Positions 20,069 through 45,523 are shown, counted from the first letter of the stretch. The stretch is DNA of 64,000 nt from a virus (IMGVR_UViG_3300042914_002848); one strand, 5' to 3'. Notes: a model not told the origin generated them from the letters alone. Numbers and translations are program-made.

Positions 20069-20233
20069 TTACTGTGCTACAGCAGCAGTAGTATCAACAC
20101 TTCCACCACCCACAGTGTCTTGTGAGAGAGTTGAATCTACAGGTTCACCCATAGTTTCAGTTGTGGTGGTTTGGTTGTTTGAGCAAGCCGTAACTGTTAC
20201 AGCAAGCATCAAAATTGCGATTAGTTTTTTCAT
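20069..20233 (-). CDS. small lipoprotein (below the ORF-track size cutoff)
   Basis: 54 aa (MKKLIAILMLAVTVTAC|SNNQTTTTETMGEPVDSTLSQDTVGGGSVDTTAAVAQ) with a signal peptide and lipobox Cys. ATG at 20231-20233. Confidence 0.45.
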   Translation of the reverse strand: MKKLIAILMLAVTVTACSNNQTTTTETMGEPVDSTLSQDTVGGGSVDTTAAVAQ

Positions 20234-26278: not shown

Positions 26279-26680
26279 TTATTTTTTAAATGCGGATTCT
26301 AATGATTTTCTTAAAGCAGAACTAAATTCGGTTCTTTCAAATGGTAGGTTTTCATCTTGCAATTGTAAAATCGTAGAAGATACTGATGTTTTGTTTGTAC
26401 CTTCCCCAAAATACTCTTTACCATCCATCGTTATTTTAGTTTTTACAACAGTTTTCTTTTGCTTAAATTCAAATGGGCCCACTCTAATACCTTTCGTTGG
26501 TGCTTCAATTGATAAAATTTCTACAGTTACTGGTCTACCATCATCGCAGAGTGCGTATTTATCATTTACCAATTCAGTAACGATTTGTTTTGCACCATAA
26601 GTTAATTTTGTATCAGGCACTCCATTCATATGAGCAAGTGTGATAACGCTTGAAATAAAGTAACATACTATTGTGTTCAT
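26279..26680 (-). CDS. hypothetical protein with hydrophobic N-terminus
   Basis: 133 aa; possible signal peptide. Confidence 0.45.
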   Translation of the reverse strand: MNTIVCYFISSVITLAHMNGVPDTKLTYGAKQIVTELVNDKYALCDDGRPVTVEILSIEAPTKGIRVGPFEFKQKKTVVKTKITMDGKEYFGEGTNKTSVSSTILQLQDENLPFERTEFSSALRKSLESAFKK

Positions 26681-26692: not shown

Positions 26693-28408
26693 TTAATAAG
26701 TTAAAGTTGATTGATTTGTAAATCCTGGTGATAATAAATATAGGTTTGTTGTACCTCCACTCAAAGGAGTAAAAGTATAGGTAGATTGAACTCCTGGTAT
26801 TGAACTTCTTAAATCGGTTGTGCTGGTGGTTAAGGTTGTCCATTGTGAGTTTGTGAATAGTAAAGTTCTTTTAGTATAAGCCAACCCATTCACCCTTTTG
26901 ATTATTGTATTTATATCCCCAATCGTAATATTATTATCACCATTTAATTCATATTTGTGGTAGTGGTAAGACCTGAGTGGTGTTCTTTGTAATATAATAT
27001 CATCAACTCCTACAAAATCAATAGAAGATAGATTTGAGGTTGTAGTTGGGATTACTACTTCAATATACCATTCATCTCCGTTTGTTATTGGCTGTGAAAA
27101 TGAATATTCCCCTAAAGTGTTTGTTGTAGATGTGGTTTGTTGAGTCCAAGAAGTGAATGTTGGTGCTAATACACCCAACTCCGATGTTTGTAATGAATAG
27201 GTACTTTGATTGGGTCTTTTCCAAACAACAGCCAATCCATCACCCCCACCATATTCTTGCATCCTTGCTCTAAAAGTGTATTGAGTCCCCGCTACTAAGT
27301 TTATATTCCCATATATCGGCCCACTCATTCCGTGTCCACCATAATAACTTACTACAAAAGTTCCACCAATGAATAAATCACTACCATCATCTGAATTTAT
27401 ACCAAATGAGTATGTCCCACTTACAGCAGGTATAAATGTCCCCGTAACTTCAACCGAATAGTAATCTCCATTATTGGGAACAGTTGCACCTGCATTTCTT
27501 ATAGTTGTAAATGTATTAAAGTTTAAGCAAGTTGTTGTAGGTAATGTCCCCGACCATCTGAGTTGAGTATTCGTAAAGGTTGTATTGAACAATCTATCAA
27601 ATTCAGTTGTGTTCGTTGGATGCGCCACATATTGTGATGTGTTTCCATTTCCAGCATGCGTTGAAAAAACCTTTACATCCATCACATTAGATAATCCAAT
27701 TGTTTGACCCCTCTTAAAAAGTTTTGTAAGTATGTTTGAAACAGGTACATCGTTTTCAGTTCTGATAATGCCTGAGTGTGTAAAAGGTATGAAGGGTGTA
27801 AACAATACAGATGAATTAGAAGTCGGACTCCAATTAACACCATTTCTACCTGTTGTTGTGATTATTTGTGAGTTATTGTTGTTTGATATCCCTTGAAGAG
27901 ATGCACCAGAAGAACACCCCGGATGTGTACTGACATTTATTTGTATTGTATTTGTTGTTTCTGATAATACGATTTGAAAATCCGTAAAAAGTGTGGTGCT
28001 GGAATTACAGCTATAATAACCTATATGATAACTTACAACAAATTTTCGGTTTGGAGATGAACCAATGGTTTGGTATCTTACAAAGTAACCAGAGATTGGA
28101 AATAAATCCATAGCATTGGCATGAATACCATTACTTACTACACTATTAGGCGAACCACCAACAATATCACCACCTGCATTTGTAAAAGATATCCATCCAT
28201 TAGAACATATATTGACTGTTGTAAAATTTGTTCCCCAATAACTGAATGTAAAACCTATTGGTAAATTAGATATAGTTTGGTCATCCCCCAAAGTTAAAGC
28301 AGTCCCAGCAGTTGATTCGTATGAGTAGGTTGGTGTTGATTGGGTATAACTCATTTGCCCAAATACCGAAAATGGTAGTAATAGTAATAATATCAACTTT
28401 TTCATCAT
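26693..28408 (-). CDS. secreted PA14-domain protein (carbohydrate-binding, adhesin-like)
   Basis: Signal peptide MMKKLILLLLLPFSVFGQ. PA14-like block GTYSFGINSDDGSDLFIGGTFVVSYYGGHG...LVAGTQYTFRARMQEYGGGDGLAVVW. Confidence 0.6.
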   Translation of the reverse strand: MMKKLILLLLLPFSVFGQMSYTQSTPTYSYESTAGTALTLGDDQTISNLPIGFTFSYWGTNFTTVNICSNGWISFTNAGGDIVGGSPNSVVSNGIHANAMDLFPISGYFVRYQTIGSSPNRKFVVSYHIGYYSCNSSTTLFTDFQIVLSETTNTIQINVSTHPGCSSGASLQGISNNNNSQIITTTGRNGVNWSPTSNSSVLFTPFIPFTHSGIIRTENDVPVSNILTKLFKRGQTIGLSNVMDVKVFSTHAGNGNTSQYVAHPTNTTEFDRLFNTTFTNTQLRWSGTLPTTTCLNFNTFTTIRNAGATVPNNGDYYSVEVTGTFIPAVSGTYSFGINSDDGSDLFIGGTFVVSYYGGHGMSGPIYGNINLVAGTQYTFRARMQEYGGGDGLAVVWKRPNQSTYSLQTSELGVLAPTFTSWTQQTTSTTNTLGEYSFSQPITNGDEWYIEVVIPTTTSNLSSIDFVGVDDIILQRTPLRSYHYHKYELNGDNNITIGDINTIIKRVNGLAYTKRTLLFTNSQWTTLTTSTTDLRSSIPGVQSTYTFTPLSGGTTNLYLLSPGFTNQSTLTY

Positions 28409-29637
28409 AACATCAATTTAGTTCCTGTTAATACCTGCCAATTTAAGAATGTTTGATTCAATTGATAAACGCCTGAAAAACTTATAGTCCATTTAAACTT
28501 ATCAGTTACTTTCAAATCGGTATTCACCATTGGTATGAATAAAAATCCACTCTTATACCATTGCCCTGCATAGAAATAAATATAGGGAGAATACACAGCT
28601 AATCCAAGAAAATTAACACCAATTGATTTTCCACCTTTAAAGTTTGTAAATCCCCCACCAATCAAAGACCAATTTCTAAAAGTATTTTTACTAATCTCAC
28701 CCAATGTAAAGGTTGTTCCTCCCATAAGTGTTATCTTATTTATTTTTTGGGCATTGAGTAGGGAAGCAGTTAAAAACCAATCTTCTTTAAAGTTACTCAT
28801 ATACGATGTAGAAAATATACCCATATACTCTTTATACTTTAAAGAACCATACCCCGATACATTTAATATGTTTTGTCCAGTTTGATAGTTTATGTTTATA
28901 CCCTTAATAAAGGTTTGTGAGGTATTGACATGAGTTAGAGATGTATTGAATCTGAAATTATCACTACCCTTTTTTGTAATATCTGAATCGTTTCTTATTA
29001 TTACAATATCCCCCGTTGCTATTAAAGCACCATTTGATACTTTGGATGATGATTTACTCTTTCCACCACCACCTCCTCCTCCACCATCACCACTATTTTC
29101 ACTTTCACCACCACTTGCCGTTTGTTGGTTTTGTTCTCCCACTACACCATCTCCACCACCTTCAGTTGAGGAATTGCTGTTATTGTTGTTATTATTGCTT
29201 CCACCATCACTTCTCGGTGCGGGTGGGGGTGTGGGTATGCTTCCAACAGAACTGCCGATAGAACTCGCCATAGATACTACTGATGTTAGGTTAGCAACTC
29301 CTCCCGCAGTTACACTACCTATAAAGTTAGAAACATTATTTGATGCTTCCGCTCCTTCGGCTGCGCAAGGGTTTGAGCCGGGAGGTAAAGCATCTCTGAT
29401 AGATTGTACCCATTGTTCATACGCCCCACCACTCAATTCAGCATAGGTAAATATGCGGTATTGTCCCGCATAAAACATTGTTACTTCGGATGATTGTGTT
29501 TGTAGTTGAACTGATTCAGTTCTACCATTACATGGGTTGATATAAGAATAGGTGAAACTCTGAGCGTGTACACTCAAAATTCCACCTATAATTAAGATAG
29601 TAGTAAGTAGTAGTTTTTTACCAACCATTTTGCTCAA
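28405..29637 (-). CDS. secreted protein with Gly/Asn/Ser low-complexity linker and C-terminal beta-strand-rich region (candidate outer-membrane beta-barrel, PorP/SprF-like?)
   Basis: Signal peptide MSKMVGKKLLLTTILIIGGILSVHAQ. The C-terminal ~200 aa show amphipathic, alternating hydrophobic periodicity. Confidence 0.5.
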   Translation of the reverse strand: MSKMVGKKLLLTTILIIGGILSVHAQSFTYSYINPCNGRTESVQLQTQSSEVTMFYAGQYRIFTYAELSGGAYEQWVQSIRDALPPGSNPCAAEGAEASNNVSNFIGSVTAGGVANLTSVVSMASSIGSSVGSIPTPPPAPRSDGGSNNNNNNSNSSTEGGGDGVVGEQNQQTASGGESENSGDGGGGGGGGKSKSSSKVSNGALIATGDIVIIRNDSDITKKGSDNFRFNTSLTHVNTSQTFIKGININYQTGQNILNVSGYGSLKYKEYMGIFSTSYMSNFKEDWFLTASLLNAQKINKITLMGGTTFTLGEISKNTFRNWSLIGGGFTNFKGGKSIGVNFLGLAVYSPYIYFYAGQWYKSGFLFIPMVNTDLKVTDKFKWTISFSGVYQLNQTFLNWQVLTGTKLML

Positions 29638-30313
29638 GACGCTTTACGAGGTTCATTGTCGCAACCTCCAAAGCCTTCTGAGTAGCAATACCAACGGTTG
29701 ATTGGTCAAATCCCATTGTAGGGTTTTTAAAGTAACCCTCACCAAATTGAGTAGATTGTCCTTGACCTGAAGCAACTATAAATTGTGAGTTTTCTACATT
29801 TACTAAACGAATTTGGATACCCATAATGGTTGTATTCGTTTTCTTTAATTTACCCTTATCATAGTTTTCTGCGTATGAAACTGAAAAATCATAGATTTCA
29901 GCATAAACTATGTATTTAGGTAAACGAATACCCTGCATTTTAAGTTTTGTTTTACCATCATCTAAACCATCAATCTTCTTTTCCCACGCATCCAACATTT
30001 GGTTTACAACGGCATCTTTTTCTTCAGTAAATTCAAAACGATTAGTATATAATAGGTTTTCTATAATACGATTAGATACACCTAAGCCAAGTCTTTTCTC
30101 TCTCAATTCAGGAAATGTCTCCCAAAGTTCTTTGTTTACATTTAATTTTGAAAGTTGAAGCGTTTGTTTCTTACCTGTGTAGGTAGAGATAGATTCTAAT
30201 GTTCTATCTGTCTTTTCAAAATCCGCTTGATATTGTGTAGTTGATATAGATGATTTACACCCACTCAATAACAACAAGCAACTTACGATTGGAATTAAAA
30301 CTATTTCTCTCAT
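29618..30313 (-). CDS. lipoprotein
   Basis: Lipobox LLLSGC|KSS after an N-terminal hydrophobic segment. Confidence 0.55.
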   Translation of the reverse strand: MREIVLIPIVSCLLLLSGCKSSISTTQYQADFEKTDRTLESISTYTGKKQTLQLSKLNVNKELWETFPELREKRLGLGVSNRIIENLLYTNRFEFTEEKDAVVNQMLDAWEKKIDGLDDGKTKLKMQGIRLPKYIVYAEIYDFSVSYAENYDKGKLKKTNTTIMGIQIRLVNVENSQFIVASGQGQSTQFGEGYFKNPTMGFDQSTVGIATQKALEVATMNLVKRLEQNGW

Positions 30314-30708
30314 TCTTCACCTTCCTGTTCTGCTTGTTTAGCTCTCAATCTCTTCATTCTCTCAGCAGGTGTTTCTTTCTTTTCTTCAACAGGTGCTGCT
30401 GCAGCAGGAGCTGCGGTTTGAGCTGGTGCTACTTCTCTGATAGTTTCCTTTTCTCTGATTACAGTAGTTCCACCACCACTACCTGCGGATGAATTACTTT
30501 GGTTGTTGTTCTCCAAATTAAGATTGATTACTGGTGCTGCGGCAGGTGCGGCCTGTTCCGTTTTGGTTTCTTCACTATCGTTTCCACCACCACCGAATAA
30601 GGTTGTGGAAATCCACACACCACCACCCGTAACTACAGTGGCGAGTGTTCCAACGATGGTCTTTTTTAATCCACCCCAAGTACCATCATTTTCTGTCTCT
30701 TCTGCCAT
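30310..30708 (-). CDS. membrane protein with Gly-zipper TM and Ala/Pro-rich low-complexity region
   Basis: 132-aa ORF. Confidence 0.45.
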   Translation of the reverse strand: MAEETENDGTWGGLKKTIVGTLATVVTGGGVWISTTLFGGGGNDSEETKTEQAAPAAAPVINLNLENNNQSNSSAGSGGGTTVIREKETIREVAPAQTAAPAAAAPVEEKKETPAERMKRLRAKQAEQEGEE

Positions 30709-30721
30709 TTTTTCTCCTTTT

Positions 30722-32623
30722 TTAGAATTTAAATATTTTGTAAACTTTTTGCTTTTCGTTAGTGGTTAATCTTACAAAGTAAAAACCTGTCTTTAAATCA
30801 CTAACATTGATTTTTTTCGTAACTACTTGATTTTGATTTACGAACTCTTTTTCTGAATAAAAGTTTTTACCCATATAATCGTAGATTTCGTATGTTAAAT
30901 ATCCCCAATCAGTTTGGAAATAATCTATGTTTAAGTTGTCTTGAACAGGGTTAGGATATACTCTGAATCCATTCACCAATTGGTCTACCAACTCTCTTGC
31001 TCTTCTACCATTAACCACAGTCGCATCTACAGGTGAAGGGATGATATTCAAATCTTCTGCTTTTTCATTTCCCGCTGCTTTGTTGGTTATTTTAATAGGT
31101 GATTGTTCCCAGTTTTGATTTAAGATTTCAAATTGGAAATTGAACATTTGAGTTGGGTTGGTGATAAGTGATGGAGACATTTTAGATTCGTGTCCACCCC
31201 AAGTTATCTCACCAGGCTTTGCTGAAATGAATGCGTTCCAAGCACTTGCTTCAGGCCCTACATTAACATTTGTAAACCTAAAAATGGTTGGGTCATACTT
31301 TAAAGATAATTGTGCCGCACCTACTTTGTTTCCGTGTGTGATAAAGGTAACAGCAACATTTACTGAATTATCATCTGAAATAGTTAATTTAGGTATTCTA
31401 AATTGAACCGAATCTTCAATGTTTTGATAGATTGTTCCTTCATCCAATACATAAGATGTTCCGCTTGTTGGGTTGTTTACTCTTTGAATTTGGAATGATA
31501 AGTTGTTTAATCCAGTATTTGTTACATCCCCTAAAACATACCCTCTATAACTTAACGAACTTAATCCATTCAATGGAACATCAATGTTAGTTGTACCTAT
31601 GATATTGGTTTGGAATACATCTGGGTTAGCCATAATCGTAGCGTATTCTCCTGCGGTATAATACCTAATATTGTATTCATTTGCTACTACAGGAGACCAA
31701 GTAGTTCTACCTGTTGCTAAACGATTAAATATTAAATAAGCATCGGATACGGATAATGTGTTATTGCGGTTTACATCACCTTGTTGGAACTCGTATGCTT
31801 GGGCAGTATCAGCGTAAATACTCATATCGGATAATCTATAAGCATCGGTAATGTTGATAGCTGAATTATCAGATAGGGTATCTAAATTTGATACTAACTT
31901 AACATTGTAGAAAGATGTATCGTATGGGATTTTAATTCCTGCTAAACCAGCAGCGTCTGTTACAAATCTTTCACCACGACTATAAGTTTGTGTGGTTTTC
32001 AGTTTGTAATCAAATGCGAATGGCATATCCGGCGCAGGTGTTCCATCTACATTTAATAAGGTTACGGGGAACACCAAAGTATCCATTTGGAATCTACCTC
32101 CGTAGCTGTAAACACCTAAAGCGTTATCAACACCAGCGGTTGTGGTTGCTATGTTTGTGTAGGCAGGGGTAGATTGAACTTCTAATGAATCAACGGAAGA
32201 AGGATTGAACCCAACGGCGTGTGGGAGTAAAACTTCAAATATAGCACCATCTGGCCAATCAAATACTGCTGATGTCCCAGTATAGATTGCCGTTGCGTTT
32301 ACCCAACCAGGCTGACTATAATAAGAACCATACTTTGTACCGATTCCTGCTGCGGTTGGTCCCCATTTTACAATAGGTTGCTTGAAAGCTGCGGTAGGGT
32401 AAAAAAATCTTACCTGAAAACCAGCATAACTTACTGCAGTTGGATTGTGATAGTGTAAATATACTACAGTAGTGTCCTCTAATACACTACCCAATGTAAA
32501 CACCGTATCAATCAAAAAGTGTGGTGAGTTTGAGTTTGGTGATACTAATACTTCCGTTCTTCCGTTTTGAGCAAATGCTCCAAATGGTAAAAGTAACGCA
32601 AATAATAAAATAAGTTTTTTCAT
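30722..32623 (-). CDS. secreted protein with type IX secretion system C-terminal sorting domain (T9SS cargo)
   Basis: Signal peptide MKKLILLFALLLPFGAFAQ. C-terminal CTD: YPNPVQDNL...EIYDYMGK...INVSDLKTGFYFVRL...KVYKIFKF, matching the Por_Secre_tail pattern. Confidence 0.7.
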   Translation of the reverse strand: MKKLILLFALLLPFGAFAQNGRTEVLVSPNSNSPHFLIDTVFTLGSVLEDTTVVYLHYHNPTAVSYAGFQVRFFYPTAAFKQPIVKWGPTAAGIGTKYGSYYSQPGWVNATAIYTGTSAVFDWPDGAIFEVLLPHAVGFNPSSVDSLEVQSTPAYTNIATTTAGVDNALGVYSYGGRFQMDTLVFPVTLLNVDGTPAPDMPFAFDYKLKTTQTYSRGERFVTDAAGLAGIKIPYDTSFYNVKLVSNLDTLSDNSAINITDAYRLSDMSIYADTAQAYEFQQGDVNRNNTLSVSDAYLIFNRLATGRTTWSPVVANEYNIRYYTAGEYATIMANPDVFQTNIIGTTNIDVPLNGLSSLSYRGYVLGDVTNTGLNNLSFQIQRVNNPTSGTSYVLDEGTIYQNIEDSVQFRIPKLTISDDNSVNVAVTFITHGNKVGAAQLSLKYDPTIFRFTNVNVGPEASAWNAFISAKPGEITWGGHESKMSPSLITNPTQMFNFQFEILNQNWEQSPIKITNKAAGNEKAEDLNIIPSPVDATVVNGRRARELVDQLVNGFRVYPNPVQDNLNIDYFQTDWGYLTYEIYDYMGKNFYSEKEFVNQNQVVTKKINVSDLKTGFYFVRLTTNEKQKVYKIFKF

Positions 32624-32643
32624 TTTACTCCTTTAAGGTTTAA

Positions 32644-32988
32644 TTATTCTTCATTTGATGATAGCGAAACCCCATCTTCTTCGTCCATTTTCTGAACAAG
32701 CATCTTATCTCTATCTTCATTAGAGAACCAAAAGTCTACTACTTTGTTTAGATTACCCACAAAAGCACCTAAAAGGATAAGTAGTAACTCTTTCCACGCT
32801 TCTTCAATACTTGCTTTGAACATTACTGCTAAAACAATACCGAATATGATAAAAAAGAATGTAAATAAAATTAATAATGTAATTTTCCAACGATTTGACT
32901 GCATCGTTTGGAGCATGAAATTGAATCTTTGGTCGTTTTCAACTCTTTGAAAATCTTCGTTGTATAGTAATTTGTTAATAAGTCCCAT
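32644..32988 (-). CDS. membrane protein
   Basis: 114 aa with two TM helices. Confidence 0.45.
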   Translation of the reverse strand: MGLINKLLYNEDFQRVENDQRFNFMLQTMQSNRWKITLLILFTFFFIIFGIVLAVMFKASIEEAWKELLLILLGAFVGNLNKVVDFWFSNEDRDKMLVQKMDEEDGVSLSSNEE

Positions 32989-32990
32989 AA

Positions 32991-33242
32991 TTATTCCTCC
33001 CCTTTGTCGCAGTTACAATCTTTCTTTTTGAAAATCTTATCTGCGGATGCTAAACCTAAAGCTCCAAAAGCAAGTGCAGCAACTGCATTTACTAATGAAT
33101 CAGCTGGGGCGATGTGGGATTCGGTGAATTGATTGTGGTACATTGTAACACATAGTGTCAATGCTGATAAAATACCCACAAATCGTTTGGATGAAAATCC
33201 TCCTTTTTCGTCTTGGAAGATTTCAGTAAAAAATCTCTTCAT
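32991..33242 (-). CDS. membrane protein
   Basis: 83 aa with two TM helices. Confidence 0.45.
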   Translation of the reverse strand: MKRFFTEIFQDEKGGFSSKRFVGILSALTLCVTMYHNQFTESHIAPADSLVNAVAALAFGALGLASADKIFKKKDCNCDKGEE

Positions 33243-33524: not shown

Positions 33525-34712
33525 TTAGGCATAATTATTCACAATTTTTATTAAATCATTTTCGTAATGTCTTACTGAACTAATATGGAATTTAAATATA
33601 TCCATTTCATAATAACCAACTGATATTTCATTCTCTGTTAAAATCTCCGATAATCTTTCAATAAATATAAAGTTATTTTGGTTTAACATCGTACCATCAA
33701 ACTCAACAACAATATCATTTTCACAAATAGGGTCGTGGTGGTTAATTAAACGAATTCTTCTACTTAAATCAAACTTTGTATTTTTTTGTTCTTCATCAAT
33801 GTAATTGGTGGTTATCATACCATATCCATCTTCTATGTATATTTTATCACACCAAGGTTCTAATGCCCTCAACAACTCTAAATTACAATTCTTTACTACT
33901 AACCCAACACCATATTTGTGGGGGATGATTGGATACTGATACTCATCGTTTTTTATCCAACTACCCCATTTACGCAGGTAGTTTCGGGCAGCAGATTGTT
34001 TCATATTATGAAAATCTACATCTTTGGTAACTTGCTCTATTCCATCCTGAAACTGACCTCCTCTACAAGTTAGATGATACACAAAAGCTGTCCATATTTG
34101 TGTAATATCATATCCATTTAAAATAAATCTATTAAAAATATCACTATCTTCGTGATAAGAGTGAAAAGTTTCATCGTGCATCCCAATTTTAGTAATATCT
34201 TCTTTATAACAAGCCCATGGAGCAAATATCCCTTTGGTTGTTATGTTTTGATTTTTCGTAATTAACTCCCTCACAAATTCATCAAATTCTTCTTTTTTAA
34301 AATCTTCAGGATAAAGTCCAAAGTTTTTAACTATTTTTTCTTTTCCTTCTGGGTGTAATGGTGGTTCAATTCTAGTTCCGGCTACAATACTACCCCGTTT
34401 CAAAAACTTTAAAATATTTTCATCAAACCCTCTAGCCACATACATATCAGCGTGAAACATACAAACTATTTCAGTAGTTGCCATTTCAATACACTTATTA
34501 TAAGCATGGGCAATTCCTTGTGGTTTATTTAAATCATTTTTAAGGTATTGAATTCCGTTTTCAATTAACCATGTTTCTGTCCCATCCTCATCCATATCAA
34601 CATAGACAATAATATGGTGTTCAATAGCACTATTTTCTTTAATAGATTTAATACTATTTTTTAAATATCTAAGATTGTTTTTGCTTGGGATACAAAAAGT
34701 TATTTTATTCAT
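33525..34712 (-). CDS. glycosyltransferase family 2 with C-terminal extension
   Basis: GT2 N-terminus ITFCIPSKNNLRYLKNSIKSI...VYVDMDEDGT. Start set at MNKITF to avoid overlapping the upstream gene. Confidence 0.6.
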   Translation of the reverse strand: MNKITFCIPSKNNLRYLKNSIKSIKENSAIEHHIIVYVDMDEDGTETWLIENGIQYLKNDLNKPQGIAHAYNKCIEMATTEIVCMFHADMYVARGFDENILKFLKRGSIVAGTRIEPPLHPEGKEKIVKNFGLYPEDFKKEEFDEFVRELITKNQNITTKGIFAPWACYKEDITKIGMHDETFHSYHEDSDIFNRFILNGYDITQIWTAFVYHLTCRGGQFQDGIEQVTKDVDFHNMKQSAARNYLRKWGSWIKNDEYQYPIIPHKYGVGLVVKNCNLELLRALEPWCDKIYIEDGYGMITTNYIDEEQKNTKFDLSRRIRLINHHDPICENDIVVEFDGTMLNQNNFIFIERLSEILTENEISVGYYEMDIFKFHISSVRHYENDLIKIVNNYA

Positions 34713-34713
34713 A

Positions 34714-35271
34714 TCAAACCCAATGTGTAAATTTAACTCCAATTTTTTCAATTTCTTTTATCAATTCAATTGTACTGTTTTTATCTTCCCCATTTTCTAA
34801 AATAGGATACATATCTTTGTGTGAATGAAACTCTACAAATAAATCATTTAGATATTGAATTGAATTATCTTCTATCATTTTTCTCAAAACAGCATATTCC
34901 GCACCTTCTATATCCATTTTAACAACTATAAAATCATCTTTAGAAAAATTTTGTATTATAAATTCGCTAAAATCCAAACACATTACATCAATAGAGCCAT
35001 AGTAATTTTTTCCTATATGGTTTTTATATATAGATGATGAATCGGTGTTTGGGTATGCAATATTAAACGTAATTATTTCATTATTAGTATATATTGCTTT
35101 ATTAATGTAATGAATATTATTGTGAATATTTTGTTCGTTGTGCTCTTGCCATAAATAAGTGTTAGGTTCAAATGAGTATATTTCCCAACTACTATCCATA
35201 TTATACATTTGTATGAATTTCATTAAACCCTCTGCCAAATGTGTCCCGCAATCTAAAAATATTTTTTTCAT
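34714..35271 (-). CDS. FkbM-family methyltransferase
   Basis: FLDCGTHLAEG and the overall FkbM layout. Confidence 0.55.
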   Translation of the reverse strand: MKKIFLDCGTHLAEGLMKFIQMYNMDSSWEIYSFEPNTYLWQEHNEQNIHNNIHYINKAIYTNNEIITFNIAYPNTDSSSIYKNHIGKNYYGSIDVMCLDFSEFIIQNFSKDDFIVVKMDIEGAEYAVLRKMIEDNSIQYLNDLFVEFHSHKDMYPILENGEDKNSTIELIKEIEKIGVKFTHWV

Positions 35272-35283
35272 ACTATCTAATTA

Positions 35284-36117
35284 TTATTTTGGTAAACACA
35301 ATAAGTTATGACCAGATTTCGGTGATATATCAGTATGTGTTTTAATTTTATTTCCTAAATTGTTAATATCAAATACACCATTACGTTCATCATAGCACTC
35401 ATAGTTTAAATCGGCTATAACATATAATAGTTCATCTATTTCTTTAAAATTTAAACCATCGTATAATTCTGTTATTAATACAGGTTTACATTCAGTTATA
35501 ATAGGTTTAAGGGTTGGAATTATATTTTTATCATGTCCTTCAGCATCTATTTTGATTAAACTAATATTATTTATTAAATTATTGTGGTGTTCTTTTAAAA
35601 AATCGGCTGTATTTACAGCAAAAACATCCAATGGAATAGTATGGCCGGTGACCCCGATACCAGCATTTAAAGATTCCGCGTATCCGCCATTACAAAAACC
35701 ATAGTCGGAATAATGAAAGGTTAAGTTTGTATTTTTTGTAGAACACGCTAAATTGTAAGGAATAATATTTTGATGTATGGTTGAATTTAATTCCAACACT
35801 TCATAAGCAACTGGATTTGGTTCGAATGAAATAACTTTATTTGCAAATAGTGAAAAAGCTATGGACATATTTCCTACTTGGGCACCAATATCTATTACAT
35901 TTGAATTTGGTCTAATTAACTTCTTTATATTATTTAATATGGTATTGGTAAATAATTCGCGTTGCTCCCAATTTCCTTGATATGGGTGATTCCATTTATA
36001 ATATTTAAAATTATATTCAATAATATTGTAATTAACAATACTGCTTGAATAGTGAAAGTTATTTTTTTTTAAAAATTGTATAACTTCTTCTCTGTATTCT
36101 TTAATTTCTTTTAACAT
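35284..36117 (-). CDS. SAM-dependent methyltransferase (FkbM-like)
   Basis: Motif I VIDIGAQVGNMSIAF. Confidence 0.55.
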   Translation of the reverse strand: MLKEIKEYREEVIQFLKKNNFHYSSSIVNYNIIEYNFKYYKWNHPYQGNWEQRELFTNTILNNIKKLIRPNSNVIDIGAQVGNMSIAFSLFANKVISFEPNPVAYEVLELNSTIHQNIIPYNLACSTKNTNLTFHYSDYGFCNGGYAESLNAGIGVTGHTIPLDVFAVNTADFLKEHHNNLINNISLIKIDAEGHDKNIIPTLKPIITECKPVLITELYDGLNFKEIDELLYVIADLNYECYDERNGVFDINNLGNKIKTHTDISPKSGHNLLCLPK

Positions 36118-36995
36118 AAAATTTTATTTTTAAATTTTTCTAATTCATTTAAAAGATTTGCTTCAGCGTGTCTTTTAAACTCCAATTGCTTATCAATTAA
36201 GTGTAAATATTTTTGATATGGATTATGGCGGTATTTAAAATTTTCTATAACTATTACTTCTTCTAGCACAAATTGTTGTATATTGTAATTACAGTTCTTC
36301 ATTATATCACAACACAACATAACATATGTATCATCCACACCATATGGTCCAAATGAATCAGGAATATCTGTTAATTTTAATAATTTAGTGGATAGCAAAT
36401 TAAACCAACCACCACCGAATTTAAAATAATTTATACTTTTTAAATTTACATCACCACTAAAAGAATAGTTGACAATTTTAAAAGGATCAACATTCCTATA
36501 TCTTTCTAAATTTGGTGATAAATTGATAAAATTTTTGTTTACTAAAGAATCCCAACTATTATCCCACATTTTCATTATTTCCGGTGATATAACGTAATAA
36601 TCAATATTAATTTTTTTAGAAGATTCTATCAAATAAAAAAAATGCTCGGGTTTAAATATAACATCACAATCTAAATAAAGAATATTATCAGAGGTGGTTG
36701 AACGTACAGCTTCTCTTCTTTTATCATCACACCCCATACATTTACTATCATCATCAATCACAAACTGAGTTTCCGCCCAATCCCACAATTTTTTTATTTG
36801 ATTAAATTTATCAATGAAAAATTGTTTAGGTATTTGTGATTTTTTCCAGTCAACTAAATTTAAATTTAAAGTGGTATCTATTATTATTTTATCTTCTGGA
36901 TTCAGATAATAACTACCAATTTTAAATTGTAATGATTGCCATTCAAACCAGTCTATTTCATGTGGTAGTAGATGAACTACTATATGCGTTTTCAT
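36111..36995 (-). CDS. hypothetical protein (glycan island)
   Basis: 294-aa ORF. Confidence 0.5.
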   Translation of the reverse strand: MKTHIVVHLLPHEIDWFEWQSLQFKIGSYYLNPEDKIIIDTTLNLNLVDWKKSQIPKQFFIDKFNQIKKLWDWAETQFVIDDDSKCMGCDDKRREAVRSTTSDNILYLDCDVIFKPEHFFYLIESSKKINIDYYVISPEIMKMWDNSWDSLVNKNFINLSPNLERYRNVDPFKIVNYSFSGDVNLKSINYFKFGGGWFNLLSTKLLKLTDIPDSFGPYGVDDTYVMLCCDIMKNCNYNIQQFVLEEVIVIENFKYRHNPYQKYLHLIDKQLEFKRHAEANLLNELEKFKNKILC

Positions 36996-37843
36996 TTTAG
37001 TAAATGTTTAAATTTATTTTTGTTTATTTTTATGTACTCAGGCAAGTTTACATTATCTATCCAATATTTAAATTCATTTCTACCTAGAATATCTGTATTA
37101 CTTTCTAAACTGTTAGAAATGTTGTTTTTAATATAATCATTATTATATTCTTGATGGCCAAAATTTTCTATTTTGGTTTTAATTCTATCAACACCACCTT
37201 GATAAGAAAAATGCCAACCAGCATTATCAATATAGGTGTATGTAGTTTTATTTGGAGTATCTAAGTGATTTACACTTGCATTTTTAACATTTTTAAATTT
37301 AGTATAATAAGTTCCGGCCCATTCTTCACTACTGCGCATGTTAAGATACATAGAAAAAACCAATTGTTTACACTTATATATTTGATTATCATCTATAACA
37401 TAACTAATATTTGGATTCCAAATTTCATCCAAATCCGATATATAGCACACGTCATCATCGGCAATTCCAGCATTAATTAAAGCATCTTTCATACATTCTT
37501 TTTGATAAAATTCACGCATCCAATGAAACTGCCCATATGGTACATTTGTAGTAGTTAAACAATTCAAATATTTTTGTTTATCAATAGTTGTTGATGCATT
37601 CAAAAATCTGAATTGAAGCTCCTCATACGATTTTGGGGTATCATCAACTATATGATGTATTATTTTGTGTGCATATTTTTTAAATAATTCTTTATTTTCA
37701 TCATAAAATAATTTTTTATTTAATCCAGAAAAAGAAATGTTTGATTCAACAATTACAAATTTATCTACAACATTTTCAAGTGTATTTAATCTAATTTCTA
37801 ATAATTCTAATTCATTAAAGAATATAAAGCAATCGTATATCAT
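36992..37843 (-). CDS. glycosyltransferase, GT17-like (tentative)
   Basis: N-terminus DCFIFFNELELLEIRL...VDKFVIVESNISFSG resembles bacterial Glyco_transf_17 homologs. Confidence 0.45.
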   Translation of the reverse strand: MIYDCFIFFNELELLEIRLNTLENVVDKFVIVESNISFSGLNKKLFYDENKELFKKYAHKIIHHIVDDTPKSYEELQFRFLNASTTIDKQKYLNCLTTTNVPYGQFHWMREFYQKECMKDALINAGIADDDVCYISDLDEIWNPNISYVIDDNQIYKCKQLVFSMYLNMRSSEEWAGTYYTKFKNVKNASVNHLDTPNKTTYTYIDNAGWHFSYQGGVDRIKTKIENFGHQEYNNDYIKNNISNSLESNTDILGRNEFKYWIDNVNLPEYIKINKNKFKHLLK

Positions 37844-38742
37844 TTTAAGTAAATTTTTGTTTGATTAATAAATAAATTTAATTCTCTTTTACATTCATCG
37901 TATGTTTGTAAATTTCCAAATCTATCCATATAAATAAAATCTTTATATAAATTACAACCCATAGACCAATACCCGTTAGATATATTATGTCTTGCCCAAT
38001 ATTTTGGAGCAATAATTAATTTTGCTAACTCATTTGTTAAAGCTGGGAAATATCCAAAGCTAGAGTTGGATAAAATTAACCACTTTGCGTTTTTTATTAT
38101 TGAATAATCCTCCCCAACACCCATGTGAAAAACATTATCGGATAACTCAGGTAATAAATTTTTTACACAATTTGGATTTTCGGTAATTACAGCAAAAGTC
38201 ATTTGGGGATTAATACTTAGCATATGATTAATAGCATTAACCCAATATGTTCTAGATAAAAATAATGTATCATCACCCTCATAGTCCCGTATATTTAAAA
38301 TACACACATCATCATTTGAAAAATCATATATATCATATTCGGGCTTAACACATAACCATTTTTTAATATCATTTTTATAATCATAAAAATAATCTTCCGA
38401 TTGTAATAATCCATCTATTTTGCAATTATCATGTAACGATAACACATTATAATCAGTCAACCGTATATCACACCCTATAGTTGCATCGTGCTGACTAGTA
38501 TTTAATTTGATTCTACATTCTTTTTCTTTGTAGTAATTAGTAATTGCGCTAATATCAACAGGCAATCCTAAATCCAAATCCATAAAATACACTCCTTTAT
38601 CGTTGTATCTTCTATCTCCAAAGTTTTCTAAACCAGTGAAACCAAATTCATACCCATTGCGTAGTGCAATAGCTCTTGTTGTAACATATACAGCAAGTTG
38701 GTTTCCAAAACCCTGTCCATAATAAAATTCGGTTGTTATCAT
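37840..38742 (-). CDS. glycosyltransferase family 11-like (alpha-1,2-fucosyltransferase-like)
   Basis: N-terminal GQGFGNQL resembles the GT11 GGLGNQMFQ motif. Confidence 0.5.
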   Translation of the reverse strand: MITTEFYYGQGFGNQLAVYVTTRAIALRNGYEFGFTGLENFGDRRYNDKGVYFMDLDLGLPVDISAITNYYKEKECRIKLNTSQHDATIGCDIRLTDYNVLSLHDNCKIDGLLQSEDYFYDYKNDIKKWLCVKPEYDIYDFSNDDVCILNIRDYEGDDTLFLSRTYWVNAINHMLSINPQMTFAVITENPNCVKNLLPELSDNVFHMGVGEDYSIIKNAKWLILSNSSFGYFPALTNELAKLIIAPKYWARHNISNGYWSMGCNLYKDFIYMDRFGNLQTYDECKRELNLFINQTKIYLK

Positions 38743-38760
38743 TAGATATAAATTTTATAG

Positions 38761-40113
38761 TTAATTGGATATTAAGTTATTATAATTATGATTTTTTCCA
38801 TGAAAGCCAAATGTTAATATACCATTATTTTCCGGTATTGGTGTTTCAAAAGAAAATTTTGATGCAACATCAATTGGTGCAAATTTACAACCATTTGCTT
38901 CATAAATGTGCTTGTTATGACAACAAAAAAATCCATCTTCGTTGTAAAACCCAAAGTAAGACTTCCACTCAAGATCCAATTCACTAGCTAATCTAAGTAG
39001 TTTTTTACTTCGCAGTGAAAAACCACCATTTCCAACTCGTTGTAAGTTACCATAACTATCTTTAAATGAAAAATCATCTTCAGGTATTGGCCACGGAGCT
39101 CCTATATAATCATATTCTAAAAACAAACCATCCCATTGTTCTGCATTAACAACAAACCCATCCTCTTGTATAATAAGGGCAAATTCAGTATTAATATATT
39201 TATGTAATTCATATACAATAAATTTACTGTATTCATCGGTATTTAGTATGGGGTTAATTTTAATAACATCTATATTATCTAACACACATTCTTCACTTGT
39301 TAATAATAAAACATTTTTAAATTCAATATTTTTTACAGAATATTGTAACGCTTTTATAGCACGTTGCACATTAACAGATGTAACACATACTAGTGTAACA
39401 TTTTCTAAATACTTTTTGTATTTTTTAGTAATGTAGTGCACTTCTTTTTCTATAATTTTATCATTAACTATTGTATTTGTTGTTCTGTTAGGATGTTCTC
39501 TATTTACAACAGTAACATAGTTACAAATACTTGGTAGTCCAAATTTATCATACAAACGTTTATAATAGTCAACATCAACCAACCATATTAGATTTTCATC
39601 AAACTCCAAAACATTTTTATTTTTAAACATTAAAACACTGGGTGAACTAATAGTATTTTCACCATAATGAATATTATCGTGATATTTAGGATATACTGTG
39701 TTGTAAAAATTTATTCCATCATTGGAATGACAGCAAGCTGTCACCATCCAATGGTTGTAATTTCCTACAAAATGATATATTTGATAGTATAAACTGTTTT
39801 CATCTACCAAAAAATCATCTTGACAAAGTATTTTTATAACATCACCCGAAGCCTTTGATATTACATTGTTTAAATTGGGCGCAAGTGTTCCGTATTTTTT
39901 TTGATAAAAAAAGTGTTTTATATTTAATTTATTAGACCATTCATAACACAAATTTTTTATTTCATCATTTTTACTATGATCTGAAATAATAATTTCAAAG
40001 TTAGTGTAAGTTTGTTTGGCTAATTTTTGAAAAGAAAAATCTAAATATTTTTTTCCGTTTCCACCCATTTCATATGTTGGTATGCATACACTAATTAAAG
40101 GTAAATTATTCAT
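38761..40113 (-). CDS. glycosyltransferase family 2 with additional C-terminal domain
   Basis: ISVCIPTYEMGGNGKKYLDFSFQKLAKQTYTNFEIIISDHS. Confidence 0.6.
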   Translation of the reverse strand: MNNLPLISVCIPTYEMGGNGKKYLDFSFQKLAKQTYTNFEIIISDHSKNDEIKNLCYEWSNKLNIKHFFYQKKYGTLAPNLNNVISKASGDVIKILCQDDFLVDENSLYYQIYHFVGNYNHWMVTACCHSNDGINFYNTVYPKYHDNIHYGENTISSPSVLMFKNKNVLEFDENLIWLVDVDYYKRLYDKFGLPSICNYVTVVNREHPNRTTNTIVNDKIIEKEVHYITKKYKKYLENVTLVCVTSVNVQRAIKALQYSVKNIEFKNVLLLTSEECVLDNIDVIKINPILNTDEYSKFIVYELHKYINTEFALIIQEDGFVVNAEQWDGLFLEYDYIGAPWPIPEDDFSFKDSYGNLQRVGNGGFSLRSKKLLRLASELDLEWKSYFGFYNEDGFFCCHNKHIYEANGCKFAPIDVASKFSFETPIPENNGILTFGFHGKNHNYNNLISN

Positions 40114-40114
40114 T

Positions 40115-40792
40115 TTAAAAAACTTTTTTTAATTTGCTTATATTCATTGTAATGTTATTTGGCGCATTAATTGGTGCGTTGATGGGTTTTGTATCAAATT
40201 CTTTTTTTGTAAGACTATGCCAAGTTTTTATTTCAGTACCTACATTATAAATACCAAAACAATTTTTATAAATTAACTTTATAATTAACTCTGATATTTT
40301 ATTTACATAATCACCATTTGTAAATTGATTATCCCATGCGTTTTTATATGGAAATGGGTATGGTTTATGAGATGTTCTAACTATTAAATAGTTTTTACAT
40401 TTTAATTGTATGTGGGCATCACCAAGTAATTTTGTGTAACCATACCAGGTTTCTAAATGAACAGGAACATCTTCCTCTGATGCTTCTGTTTTAGAATTTG
40501 CATAAATATAATCAGTAGATATATGAGCAAGTTTTTTTCCTGTCTCGTTACAAAAATTTACTAATGTATCAACAAACTCATAATTTACTTTCCAATGCAA
40601 TTCTTTATTATTTGAATATGTGTCTGTATTTGCTATGCAATTAATGATAACGTCATATTCAGAAAGTTTAAACATCCATTGGTTAAAGTCAAAAATATCT
40701 ATTCCATCTTTTTTTCTTGAAATATAATCCCAATTAGTTTGTTTAACCAATTCAGAACCTAATAAACCATCACCAAGAATTACTATTTTCAT
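40115..40792 (-). CDS. NAD(P)-dependent sugar-nucleotide 4-reductase (RmlD/Rmd-like)
   Basis: Rossmann N-terminus MKIVILGDGLLGSELV and the YxxxK region. Confidence 0.5.
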   Translation of the reverse strand: MKIVILGDGLLGSELVKQTNWDYISRKKDGIDIFDFNQWMFKLSEYDVIINCIANTDTYSNNKELHWKVNYEFVDTLVNFCNETGKKLAHISTDYIYANSKTEASEEDVPVHLETWYGYTKLLGDAHIQLKCKNYLIVRTSHKPYPFPYKNAWDNQFTNGDYVNKISELIIKLIYKNCFGIYNVGTEIKTWHSLTKKEFDTKPINAPINAPNNITMNISKLKKVF

Positions 40793-42075
40793 TTAAAATT
40801 TTTTACAACGGATTCAATATATTCAAAAACTACATCAGTATAGTGTGGTGCGGCCCCAATAAAAAATACTTTATCTAAAACTTTATTAGCTTCAGGATAG
40901 TTTGATGAATTGTCTAAAAATGAATATCCCGGATGTAACAAAATATTACCTGCAAAATAATTTCTCGTCTGAATTTTATTTTTTTCCAAATGTTCAACTA
41001 ATTTATGCTTTAACCCTTCTTCTTCACAAACAAATGGAGTACCAAACCAACTTACATCCGCTTTATCCAAAGATTTAATACCCCTAATTCCTTTTATATT
41101 TGAGGTAAAAATATTCTCAATTGTTTCTTTTGATTTTTTTCTATTAGTTTCAATCTCATCAAATTTATCCAATTGAACAGAACCTATAGCCCCCTGTAAA
41201 TCCAATGGTTTTAAATTATAGCCCATATTTGAAAAAACATATTTATGGTCTATTATACCATCATATGAATCTAACCAATTATTAAATCTTTTACCACAAG
41301 TACCACAACTTAACAAATTAGCTGAACCCACGCAGTAGCAATCTCTACCCCACCATGCTATACTTGTTAATAATTTTTTTAATTCTTCTTCATTAGTCCC
41401 AATCAACCCACCTTCTCCAGTAGAAATATGGTGTGCTGGGTAGAATGAATTTGAGTATGCTATATAATACTCATTTAAATATTTGCCACCCCATTTTGAA
41501 CCCAAACTATCACAGTTATCTCCAATTAGTTTTAAATTGTATTTTTCACAAATTTCAATAAGTTTATCAAAATCTGGCGGATTGCCTAAAACGGGGGAAA
41601 CAAATATTGCTTTAGTTTTATTTGTTATTTTTGATTCTATTTGATTTAAATCAAAATTCAAAGTATCCCATTCAATATCTACAAATACAGGCTTAAGTCT
41701 ATTTTGATATAAAACAGATATTGTTGTGGCAAAACCAACAGGTGAAACAATAACTTCATCATCATCTTCCCAACCAAAATATTTTTTTAAAGCGGTTATC
41801 ATTACTAAATTTGCAGAGCTACCTGAGTTTACCATTTGGTTGAATTTTGAATTAAATTTTTTACCAAATTTTCTTTCAAATTTCCAAACTTCTTCTCCAG
41901 CAGTAATCCATTTACCATTTAAAAATGTATTAACAGCAGCTTCTATTTCTTTATTATCCCAATATGGGCCTGAGTAGTAAATGGGTGTAGTTCCCGCTTT
42001 GAATTCTTTAGAATTGTATATGTAGGGGGCTACATGATTTCCAATTAAAGATTTAATTTCATTTTGTAAAATCAT
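40789..42075 (-). CDS. DegT/DnrJ/EryC1/StrS-family PLP-dependent sugar aminotransferase/dehydratase
   Basis: Family-typical size and NSGSSANLVMITAL block. A Cys cluster (CYCVGSANLLSCGTCGKRF) hints at an E1-type 3-dehydrase. Confidence 0.6.
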   Translation of the reverse strand: MILQNEIKSLIGNHVAPYIYNSKEFKAGTTPIYYSGPYWDNKEIEAAVNTFLNGKWITAGEEVWKFERKFGKKFNSKFNQMVNSGSSANLVMITALKKYFGWEDDDEVIVSPVGFATTISVLYQNRLKPVFVDIEWDTLNFDLNQIESKITNKTKAIFVSPVLGNPPDFDKLIEICEKYNLKLIGDNCDSLGSKWGGKYLNEYYIAYSNSFYPAHHISTGEGGLIGTNEEELKKLLTSIAWWGRDCYCVGSANLLSCGTCGKRFNNWLDSYDGIIDHKYVFSNMGYNLKPLDLQGAIGSVQLDKFDEIETNRKKSKETIENIFTSNIKGIRGIKSLDKADVSWFGTPFVCEEEGLKHKLVEHLEKNKIQTRNYFAGNILLHPGYSFLDNSSNYPEANKVLDKVFFIGAAPHYTDVVFEYIESVVKNFK

Positions 42076-42131
42076 ATTTTAATTTTTGTATTTTATTTTT
42101 TAAATTTATATAAAAACTATTTTATATAGAG

Positions 42132-43019
42132 TTATACAAAGTATTTAAAATTTGTTTGATCATATTTAGTATAAAGACCATAGCATGGCACAACACCCCA
42201 TAAAGGAATATATACTTCATTTGAAATACCAAAAAATAAAGAACTTAATGCATAATTACTTTTTGATAAAATTAATGTTTCGCAATTACACAATAAAAAC
42301 AAATCATAAGACTCATCAGTATTTGAAATACATTTGTAAGGAATATCCTCTAAATTTTCTTTTGGGTTTGTAATAACAATCACTTCATAATCAGTCTTAT
42401 CTTTTTTTAAAGAATCTACAATAGATTGTATTCTATTAAATGGTATCGGTGCTTGTCCGCTACAATTTGGATTTATTCTTAAAACATCATCATGTGTAAT
42501 ATGATTTGCTATATTACCATTTTCAATATGATTTTTAAAGTGAGTTGCACACACTCGCCCATCATAATCCGGTCTATTTCTAACATCCTCAAGCCGCAAA
42601 TGTATTAGAATAGTTTTTTTAGGATTAAATGGTATTGTATAACCGTTTGCAGCGCCTCTATCCATAAATGAATTTTTTATATCGGATGTATAGAGCTGTT
42701 TAAATGCTGAAAACATATCAATCTTCACATTAAGTAATGTTCTTGAAAAGGTTTCAAAGTGAGTTGGTGCAGCTAAATCAACAAATTGTGTAAAATCTTC
42801 ATTTTGAATTGTAGAATTATGCTTATCTATAATATCAAATAAAGTTTGTACAAAAATAGTACGATTGTAATTTTGATTATAATAATTATATGCCCGTATA
42901 ATGTCCCTACTATGATACCTGATATACATTTTGTTGTTTACGGCATATAGTATTTGTGCTACCATATCCGCTATATTACCACCAAGCCTATCACTTGAAC
43001 CAAATAAATCTATATACAT
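42132..43019 (-). CDS. hypothetical protein (possible glycosyltransferase)
   Basis: 295-aa ORF. Confidence 0.45.
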   Translation of the reverse strand: MYIDLFGSSDRLGGNIADMVAQILYAVNNKMYIRYHSRDIIRAYNYYNQNYNRTIFVQTLFDIIDKHNSTIQNEDFTQFVDLAAPTHFETFSRTLLNVKIDMFSAFKQLYTSDIKNSFMDRGAANGYTIPFNPKKTILIHLRLEDVRNRPDYDGRVCATHFKNHIENGNIANHITHDDVLRINPNCSGQAPIPFNRIQSIVDSLKKDKTDYEVIVITNPKENLEDIPYKCISNTDESYDLFLLCNCETLILSKSNYALSSLFFGISNEVYIPLWGVVPCYGLYTKYDQTNFKYFV

Positions 43020-43020
43020 A

Positions 43021-44001: not shown

Positions 44002-44024
44002 TTTTATTTATTTTTATTTATTAT

Positions 44025-44780: not shown

Positions 44781-44789
44781 TGTTATTTT

Positions 44790-45458: not shown

Positions 45459-45523
45459 TTTGTTTTAAATTTTATTTTATCAAGCAATGTACTAAACCAC
45501 TTGAATTCATATATAATATTTTT

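Follow-up and report, generated by a model that had tools for sequence, protein, structure and literature searches.

What is a phage doing with a run of consecutive genes whose products carry export signals? The question is raised by a 64-kb stretch of viral DNA (IMGVR_UViG_3300042914_002848, the whole of which is called the window below), in which a first-pass annotation had reported consecutive genes for exported proteins at positions 26693-33242. These genes were found on the minus strand, with the signal peptides, the lipobox and the hydrophobic segments described, and we added to them a neighbouring gene, g133, at 26279-26680 (genes g83 to g633 are named after the length of their products in amino acids). 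Lytic phages are usually thought to leave the surface of their host alone until lysis. The predicted products suggest that this cassette is probably a conserved accessory operon that installs a phage protein complex in the host envelope during infection, and does not build the virion. Beyond the first-pass annotation, our analysis identified cohesin and dockerin-like modules, a CsgG-family identity for the lipoprotein, the bacterial origin of a trio of genes, and the membership of g133.

Signal peptides were judged by inspection and with a heuristic, not with SignalP or LipoP, and transmembrane (TM) segments were scanned for with a hydrophobicity threshold over 19 residues. By inspection, three cassette proteins exhibit Sec signal peptides cut before a glutamine: g633 (MKKLILLFALLLPFGAFA/QNG, ending FA/Q, the slash marking the cleavage site), g571 (MMKKLILLLLLPFSVFG/QMS, ending FG/Q) and g410 (ending HA/Q). 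The same small-residue/Gln ending is found in 42 of 43 distinct N-termini of g410 relatives and in 36 of 39 distinct N-termini of the cohesin-bearing relatives of g633. These endings fit the Bacteroidetes "Q-rule" for signal peptidase I substrates, reportedly set out by Bochtler et al. in 2018. The g231 sequence exhibits a lipobox, LLSG/C, the cysteine of which is invariant in 18 close homologues. As a background, a crude scan of minus-strand open reading frames (ORFs) of at least 50 aa flagged 10 with a hydrophobic N-terminus; five of them read as a cleavable-type signal peptide or lipobox, and four of those five fall in this 6.5 kb. The segments of g114 and g83 exceed the 19-residue threshold; the G/T-rich segment of g132 (residues 17-39) lies below it and was called a membrane segment by eye. 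The products bear the sorting signals of four host pathways: Sec/signal peptidase I, lipoprotein, outer-membrane barrel insertion and type IX secretion.

The cassette is not peculiar to the window. At least 550 contigs in IMG/VR encode a relative of g231, and 80 of these loci were examined. Their gene order is fixed: a cohesin/sorting-domain protein (g633), a first CsgG-like protein (g231), a candidate barrel (g410), a variable slot (g571) and a second CsgG-like protein (g133). The cohesin/sorting-domain gene is present in 76 of the 76 loci having enough upstream sequence: the CsgG-like/barrel module of these phages is always linked to a gene for a cohesin-bearing type IX secretion system (T9SS) cargo. 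The ratio of non-synonymous to synonymous substitution rates (dN/dS), taken against a relative whose dS is not saturated, ranges from 0.02 to 0.11 over the eight genes (0.033 for g231; 0.11 for g633, against locus L007) and is 0.03 for the endolysin. The eight genes form one selected unit under strong purifying selection. Among 50,697 deposited phage genomes the cassette was found only in the Flavobacterium phage vB_FspM_immuto (hereafter immuto), the complete genome of a cultured lytic phage with Flavobacterium sp. LMO8 as its host. There it is located at 10.5-16.4 kb, amid genes for replication and nucleotide metabolism; the structural genes are at 80-160 kb. The carriers are a large, widespread group of Bacteroidota (Flavobacterium-type) phages from freshwater and brackish water. 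The small membrane proteins are also shared. Homologues of g114, 55-65% identical, lie inside the cassette in the distant lineages L020 and L030 (the matches in PHROGs are only to families without assigned function), and homologues of g83 lie beside it in many viral loci, at varying positions. The stop codon of g132 overlaps the start of g231, and over its first 51 residues g132 has 61% identity to immuto gp016; a g132 gene sits between the cargo gene and the first CsgG-like gene in most viral loci, and was not detected in L093-L102.

T9SS is general in the genus Flavobacterium. The first-pass annotation had read the end of g633 as a T9SS sorting domain and proposed a TIGR04183 search as a check. 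Both available profiles bear this out: PF18962 (Por_Secre_tail) matches residues 555-630 over positions 1-73 of its 75 (E-value = 2.6e-14; 53.7 bits, cut-off 27), and TIGR04183 scores 39 bits against a cut-off of 23, the two matches together taking in residues 555-632 of 633. The C-terminus also matches a solved sorting domain (PDB 8glj_D, E-value = 1.4e-3), and the motifs YPNP, DxxG, GxY and KxxK are seen in it when aligned with its homologues. By its sequence, g633 is a member of the type A T9SS cargo family. Upstream of the sorting domain, g633 matches the cohesin family PF00963 (28.3 bits, cut-off 24.1), as do its homologues in L018, L029 and L030, likewise above the Pfam cut-off. A cohesin profile built from the phage homologues matched 17 PDB sequences, led by entries named cohesin or scaffoldin (best E-value = 3.3e-5). 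The predicted cohesin domain is genuine. A second cohesin, sought in the N-terminal domain of g633, was rejected (hhalign probability 22%). In two loci binned in metagenome-assembled genomes (MAGs), L026 (3406-5199) and L029 (4475-6244), the protein stops right past the cohesin and no Pfam sorting-domain match is obtained; either the domain is truly lost there or the tail has diverged.

A module of about 160 aa occurs both in the middle of g633 and at the C-terminal end of g571, and also in their counterparts in other phages. A small beta-sandwich comes first in it, then an EF-hand-like loop and a helix, for example DVNRNNTLSVSDAYLIF; the loop of the g633 copy is DVNRNNTLSVSD. The loop pattern D-x-N-x-[DN]-x-x-[ILV]-x-x-x-D occurs in one clear copy, the first repeat being degenerate. 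Dockerin_1 (PF00404) matches the two modules with E-values of 0.051 and 0.13 (14.2 and 13.0 bits, cut-off 22.9); it is the top Pfam match for the g571 copy and the second for the g633 copy, behind a spurious gerPA match. A profile of ten copies obtained six matches in the PDB, all to dockerin modules or dockerin-bearing cellulosomal proteins (E-values 0.027-2). A tblastn search of the g571 module against phages gave no match. These observations are suggestive of a dockerin-like module, and do not prove one. Per phage there is a single cohesin and a single sorting domain, with no more than two dockerin-like modules; all of them lie within the cassette, and no cohesin, dockerin-like or sorting domain was found outside it in the window or in immuto (minus its first 2.6 kb). 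In immuto two genes, gp014 and gp015 (L001 8935-10759), take the place of g633, each with its own signal peptide. In all three isolates one half holds the N-terminal domain and the dockerin-like module, and the other the cohesin and the sorting domain, an arrangement expected if the halves associate by cohesin-dockerin binding.

The g571 protein carries a PA14 domain, as had been proposed at first reading (PF07691, residues 312-406; E-value = 5e-13, 49.5 bits, cut-off 24); PA14 proteins in the PDB also match it. Its gene occupies the slot between the barrel gene and g133, the content of which varies: PA14 in the window and L018, a C-type lectin domain in L004-L006, L020 and immuto, and unassigned domains elsewhere. 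The N-terminal domain of the slot protein is itself present in some lineages and absent in others. These differences occur among contigs whose proteins elsewhere in the cassette are about 85-97% identical to those of the window. Like a receptor-binding gene, the slot is a hot spot of recombination. The slot of L007 (9221-10933) has PA14 as in the window, and that of L004 (9221-10201) a C-type lectin, the other cassette proteins of each of these two contigs being about 83-97% identical to those of the window. Stop-codon read-through joining g571 to g133 was considered and discarded: the two genes are in frame in the window and out of frame in the relative L014.

Alone, g231 gave no significant match against Pfam. 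A profile of 27 members of its family, however, found E. coli CsgG as its best match among PDB sequences (E-value = 1.5e-4), with an alignment beginning at the lipobox. An exhaustive profile search collected 210 cluster representatives, and in distant ones the matched region falls on a Pfam CsgG domain; bacterial orthologues about 40% identical to g231 exceed the Pfam CsgG cut-off. The predicted protein is best called a divergent CsgG-family lipoprotein. In the HMMER alignment, judged by eye, the g231 stretch aligned to the first CsgG hairpin lacks about 7 residues and contains many Lys, Glu and Asp.

In g410 the signal peptide precedes a small domain, which a low-complexity linker connects to a beta-rich C-terminus. 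Two cysteines of the small N-terminal domain are invariant in the family, as expected for an exported protein. The C-terminus models as an outer-membrane beta-barrel, with low confidence, and a fold search in BFVD gave weak matches to phage outer-membrane proteins; barrel profiles against PDB sequences returned low-complexity noise or nothing. The linker and the beta-rich C-terminus reported in the first-pass annotation are thus present, and a barrel is tentatively retained, while the suggested PorP/SprF identity is not: there is no match to the family (PF11751), and the adjoining cargo has a sorting domain of type A, not type B. Two other identities were rejected. The features defining autotransporters (type V secretion) were not found in g410; and its conserved mature N-terminus, QxFxYxYxNPC, looks CsgF-like by eye, yet a profile search of PDB sequences found no CsgF.

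Where, then, do g231, g410 and g133 come from? One genome per species was scanned for g231 relatives, which are of two kinds. The first are cassette-bearing, phage-like contigs binned in Flavobacterium, Sediminibacterium and Bacteroidetes MAGs. The second are bacterial contigs of KSB1, Ignavibacteriales, Bacteroidota, Rhodothermales, Cloacimonadota, Fibrobacterota, Chitinivibrionales and Spirochaetia. There the usual set consists of a CsgG-like lipoprotein, a signal-peptide protein of 314-414 aa that has an acidic linker as well as a C-terminal barrel ending in ...LGxxxRF, and another CsgG-like protein. Gene order and spacing vary, and 3 of 9 loci show no barrel within the available sequence. 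The resemblance extends to all three phage proteins. The g231 protein is 34-45% identical to the bacterial lipoprotein. The g410 family aligns with the bacterial barrel (hhalign 93.8%, E-value = 1.7e-7), and its phage hidden Markov model directly matches the Spirochaetia protein (E-value = 2.3e-11). The g133 family aligns with the second bacterial CsgG-like protein (hhalign 98.7%, E-value = 3e-16), and more distantly with the g231 family (hhalign 97.2%); g133 itself is 39% identical to immuto gp019. The genes gp017-gp018-gp019 of immuto retain the commonest bacterial order exactly. Thus g410 belongs to a so far unnamed family of predicted barrels with relatives in a bacterial CsgG-like operon, and these homologies show that the three genes correspond to a predicted bacterial envelope module (first CsgG-like protein, barrel, second CsgG-like protein) that was taken up by phages.

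Operon loci (L022 787-3591, L025 4979-7623, L027 6947-8899, L028 6968-9335 and L024 6011-8328) come from KSB1, Rhodothermales, Cloacimonadota, Bacteroidota and Spirochaetia, mostly taxa of the FCB group plus one Spirochaetia MAG. Their neighbours are often Ser/Thr kinases, histidine kinases, a CHASE2 cyclase or caspase-domain proteins, and some of the bacterial CsgG-like domains are fused to kinase or caspase domains. T9SS cargo genes adjoin only one bacterial locus, that of Cloacimonadota. Among the phages, the second CsgG-like protein has a normal signal peptide (...G/QC...) in the immuto, L020 and L030 lineages (L001 13291-13746; L020 4011-4502).

How might these parts work together? In the scheme that we propose, g410 would sit in the outer membrane and g231 and g133 would lie on its periplasmic side, as presumed for the bacterial homologues; the barrel and the two CsgG-like proteins would form an outer-membrane platform. 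The g633 protein would be exported through the host T9SS and retained at the surface, where its cohesin may bind dockerin-like modules and, in some lineages, hold PA14 or C-type lectin domains on the cell. The small proteins g132, g114 and g83 may link the assembly to the inner membrane. The most likely purpose would be a lectin coat on strain-specific host glycans, leading to receptor masking or exclusion of other phages and keeping progeny off debris; we favour such a target because the lectin domain turns over as receptor-binding proteins do. A bolder reading, a self-contained virus-encoded surface-display system (a T9SS-anchored cohesin scaffold, interchangeable lectins docked through the dockerin-like modules, and the CsgG/barrel trio as platform or as a dedicated export route for partners without a sorting domain), is tentative and unlikely. 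The scheme of an envelope complex installed during infection is the one that we regard as probable. The interpretation in the first-pass annotation is supported as far as exported envelope proteins are concerned; a functional linkage to lysis is not (see below).

Several observations weigh against the proposed complex or its details. The AlphaFold2 models of g410 and g231 are of low confidence (pLDDT, the predicted local distance difference test score, of 38.9 and 50.7, respectively). The loops of g231 matching the transmembrane hairpins of CsgG are shorter and polar by eye, so that a CsgG-type channel formed by g231 is doubtful and is not claimed here; and its lipobox cysteine is replaced by a signal peptidase I site in immuto and L020, where the protein is no lipoprotein. 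The dockerin match is under every curated threshold. The slot protein lacks the dockerin-like module in many lineages, so cohesin-dockerin recruitment is not the universal rule, and g571 has no sorting domain that would account for its passage across the outer membrane. In the window lineage g133 starts with MNTIVCYF..., with no signal peptide and no space for an upstream start; the gene nonetheless evolves under strong purifying selection (dN/dS 0.04-0.09). No function is assigned to the bacterial parent module, and no cassette protein matched the anti-phage defence families of PADLOC.

The main alternative uses the same parts for another purpose, namely adhesion or nutrient capture: the cargo and the lectins, released or displayed, would bind algal or particle polysaccharides and keep the infected cell attached to substrate or to neighbouring hosts, raising burst size or transmission. 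PA14 and C-type lectin domains bind carbohydrate, and the cassette of the window adjoins a glycosyltransferase island. Cohesin-dockerin pairs organise extracellular glycan-degrading complexes in other bacteria, and many type A proteins of F. johnsoniae are released, not anchored. Domain searches, however, found no catalytic glycoside hydrolase or lyase domain in any cassette protein, and the rapid swapping of lectins looks more like the tracking of strain-specific host glycans than the binding of common substrates. We consider adhesion a possible purpose and, on present evidence, an unlikely one.

A role in lysis is a further alternative, with g132, g231 and the barrel acting as a spanin-like or outer-membrane disruptor together with the adjoining endolysin and holin. 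The end of the cassette is indeed 40 bp from a GH19 endolysin gene, followed by a holin gene, and the g132/g231 overlap resembles many i-spanin/o-spanin gene pairs. Across the related loci, however, this proximity is not kept: within 8 kb, 29 of the 80 have a GH19 endolysin and the other 51 have none, and the annotated endolysin-holin pair of immuto (gp191, gp190) is about 27 kb from the cassette. A functional link to the lysis genes is not supported. Besides, g231, g410 and g133 have homologues in non-phage bacterial operons, g231 would be a folded CsgG-like domain that is unlipidated in some phages, and lysis offers no role for lectins, a cohesin or a T9SS signal. A lysis accessory is very improbable.

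Still harder to sustain is the idea that the lectin proteins are virion or receptor-binding parts, tail-fibre-like adhesins whose hydrophobic N-termini are not true signal peptides. The domain shuffling at the slot recalls receptor-binding proteins, and phage virions often carry Ig-like or lectin domains. The first-pass annotation had argued that signal peptides speak against a structural role, and the wider evidence agrees. The signal peptides cut before Gln (throughout almost all the barrel and cohesin-protein N-termini), the lipobox, the full-length type A sorting domain, the predicted outer-membrane barrel fold and the homology to bacterial envelope operons make a virion role unlikely; the products are better seen as putative exported envelope proteins. 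The genes stand outside the structural module of immuto, far from it, and the cassette exhibits no match to a PHROGs structural family. No structural protein with a cohesin or dockerin-like module was found in the window or in the immuto sequence examined. On the same searches of the two sequences we rejected the idea that cohesin-dockerin binding decorates virions after release, no such module being found there outside the cassette.

That the region is a host island or a mis-assembly, as the bacterial homologues of g231, g410 and g133 and the binning of some cassette contigs in Flavobacterium, Sediminibacterium and Bacteroidetes MAGs might suggest, is hardly credible against its position in a co-oriented block with a T4-type DNA polymerase, clamp loader, GroEL, endolysin and holin, its presence in the complete genome of an isolated lytic phage and on the hundreds of IMG/VR contigs mentioned above, and a GC content (about 35%) equal to that of the flanking phage genes.

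Table 1. Genes of the cassette and their predicted domains (positions in the 64-kb window).
Feature	Position	Strand	Remarks
g83, 83-aa small membrane protein, first cassette gene in the window lineage	32991..33242	-	hydrophobic segment, residues 49-67
g114, 114-aa putative inner-membrane protein	32644..32988	-	strong TM segment, residues 38-56
g633, predicted T9SS cargo	30722..32623	-	signal peptide, N-terminal domain without assignment, beta-sandwich and dockerin-like module, cohesin, type A sorting domain
T9SS type A sorting domain of g633 (residues 555-633)	30725..30961	-	PF18962, TIGR04183, 8glj_D
Cohesin of g633 (residues 407-517)	31073..31405	-	PF00963, PDB profile matches
Beta-sandwich and dockerin-like (EF-hand-type) module of g633 (residues 216-374)	31502..31978	-	shared with g571 C-terminus
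g132, 132 aa	30310..30708	-	acidic N-terminus, G/T-rich segment, Ala/Pro-rich stretch, charged C-terminus
g231, putative divergent CsgG-family outer-membrane lipoprotein	29618..30313	-	lipobox LLSG/C
g410, signal peptide, 72-aa two-Cys domain (29347-29562), N/G/S-rich disordered linker and putative C-terminal beta-barrel (28408-29037)	28405..29637	-	
g571, lectin-slot protein	26693..28408	-	signal peptide, N-terminal domain (residues 18-208), PA14 (27191-27475), beta-sandwich and dockerin-like module (26696-27193)
g133, putative reduced CsgG-like paralogue	26279..26680	-	hhalign to bacterial and g231 families

The genes of the window form one co-oriented minus-strand phage block, with a GC content of about 33-36% outside its glycan island. 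Its family B DNA polymerase is 50% identical to that of Microcystis phage Mel-JY01, and the T4-type polymerase context includes a clamp loader, GroEL, an exonuclease, many glycosyltransferases, the GH19 endolysin and the holin. The glycan island (about 34000-48000) exhibits a GC content of 25-29% and is crowded with genes for GT2 glycosyltransferases and FkbM-type methyltransferases, a nucleotide-sugar epimerase being encoded close by; a comparable glycosyltransferase block exists in the immuto genome. The two phages are similarly organised (GroEL/GroES, glycan island, cassette) except for the polymerase, which is of family B in the window (58101-60599) and of family A in immuto (L036 15899-18232), a difference resembling the polymerase swapping discussed in papers citing immuto. 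No DNA-level relative was obtained when 20 kb of the window were compared with the phage collection by megablast, and a scan for sigma-70 promoters and terminators gave counts at chance level. Outside the cassette, the window also encodes a predicted lipoprotein of 54 aa (20069-20233; MKKLIAILMLAVTVTA/C), an SPFH/Band 7 protein of 286 aa whose N-terminus bears a membrane segment (9489-10349), and two neighbouring paralogues (60638-62209 and 62408-63628), both matching phrog_12517 and, weakly, a DNA methyltransferase family. In immuto, the gene just upstream of the cassette, gp012 (L001 7272-7850), is annotated as a NUC1/endonuclease G-type nuclease; its product begins with MKKIFLLLLLPLLSFS/Q, a signal peptide, and is apparently exported as well.

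How does the cassette compare with known systems? Phage genes with T9SS sorting domains have been described before. The 76-kb "Cryophage" has variable endoglucanase, GH39 and PA14 genes that carry a sorting domain of type A (Bellas et al. 2020, PMC7468147), and some gut crAss-BACON phages have sorting-domain genes (de Jonge et al. 2019, PMC6949934). As in the window, those cases exhibit a type A C-terminus, PA14 among the variable genes and cargo varying between near-identical genomes; a role in exclusion or competition was also proposed, with no experimental follow-up. The Cryophage is, however, unrelated to the window phage, and here it is the cohesin protein that bears the sorting domain, the PA14 protein having none. 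Moreover, the cargo is here locked to a CsgG-like/barrel/CsgG-like module and small putative inner-membrane proteins, a cassette described in neither paper.

The g231 protein shares with CsgG (PF03783; E. coli 3x2r, 6lqh) and with the Caulobacter holdfast anchor HfaB a predicted core fold and a detectable sequence relation, and is likewise encoded beside partner envelope proteins acting at the cell surface. It differs from CsgG in being about 50 residues shorter, below Pfam significance, and shorter and more polar in the segments aligned to the hairpins; the cassette has no homologues of CsgA, B, E or F, and the partner of g231 is a monomer-type barrel. Cellulosomes and non-cellulosomal cohesin-dockerin assemblies resemble the cassette in having a cohesin on a surface-anchoring protein and a putative duplicated EF-hand-like module on the candidate recruits. 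In contrast to cellulosomes, the candidate recruits are lectins only, with no enzymes; the dockerin-like module is below threshold, with a longer insert between its two loops; anchoring would be by a T9SS sorting domain instead of an S-layer homology domain or a sortase signal; and the system is virus-encoded. Like T5 Llp, lambda Lom and Bor, Cor and TraT-like proteins, the cassette is a case of phage genes with signal peptides or lipoboxes placing proteins in the host outer membrane. Each of those is one small protein whose target is known, whereas the cassette comprises eight genes, would span several compartments and use T9SS, has no sequence relation to them, and has a predicted function. 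As with PorP/SprF, the gene for the putative g410 barrel adjoins a T9SS cargo gene; apart from the missing family match and the type A cargo already noted, its relatives are barrels of CsgG operons, including one from a Spirochaetia MAG. We know of no T9SS in Spirochaetia. In the literature searched, the coverage of which is incomplete, we found no description of a phage cohesin/dockerin system or of a phage CsgG-like module. Phage envelope proteins and T9SS cargo are already known; the cassette as a whole appears undescribed in that literature.

A widespread group of phages thus keeps eight genes under strong selection, apparently rebuilding the surface of the host. Flavobacteria rank among the main degraders of algal polysaccharide. 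Should the lectin coat hide receptors or stick cells to one another, there would be consequences for superinfection, for how many progeny are lost on debris and for how these bacteria attach to particles. The predictions are directly testable, since a cultured system exists in immuto and Flavobacterium sp. LMO8. The cassette also points to an uncharacterised three-gene envelope module of bacteria, and offers a compact, phage-borne version of it for study. Should surface display prove true, the cassette would be the first example from a virus of a cohesin-dockerin assembly and of a CsgG-type envelope machine, and it would provide a handle on that bacterial envelope operon.

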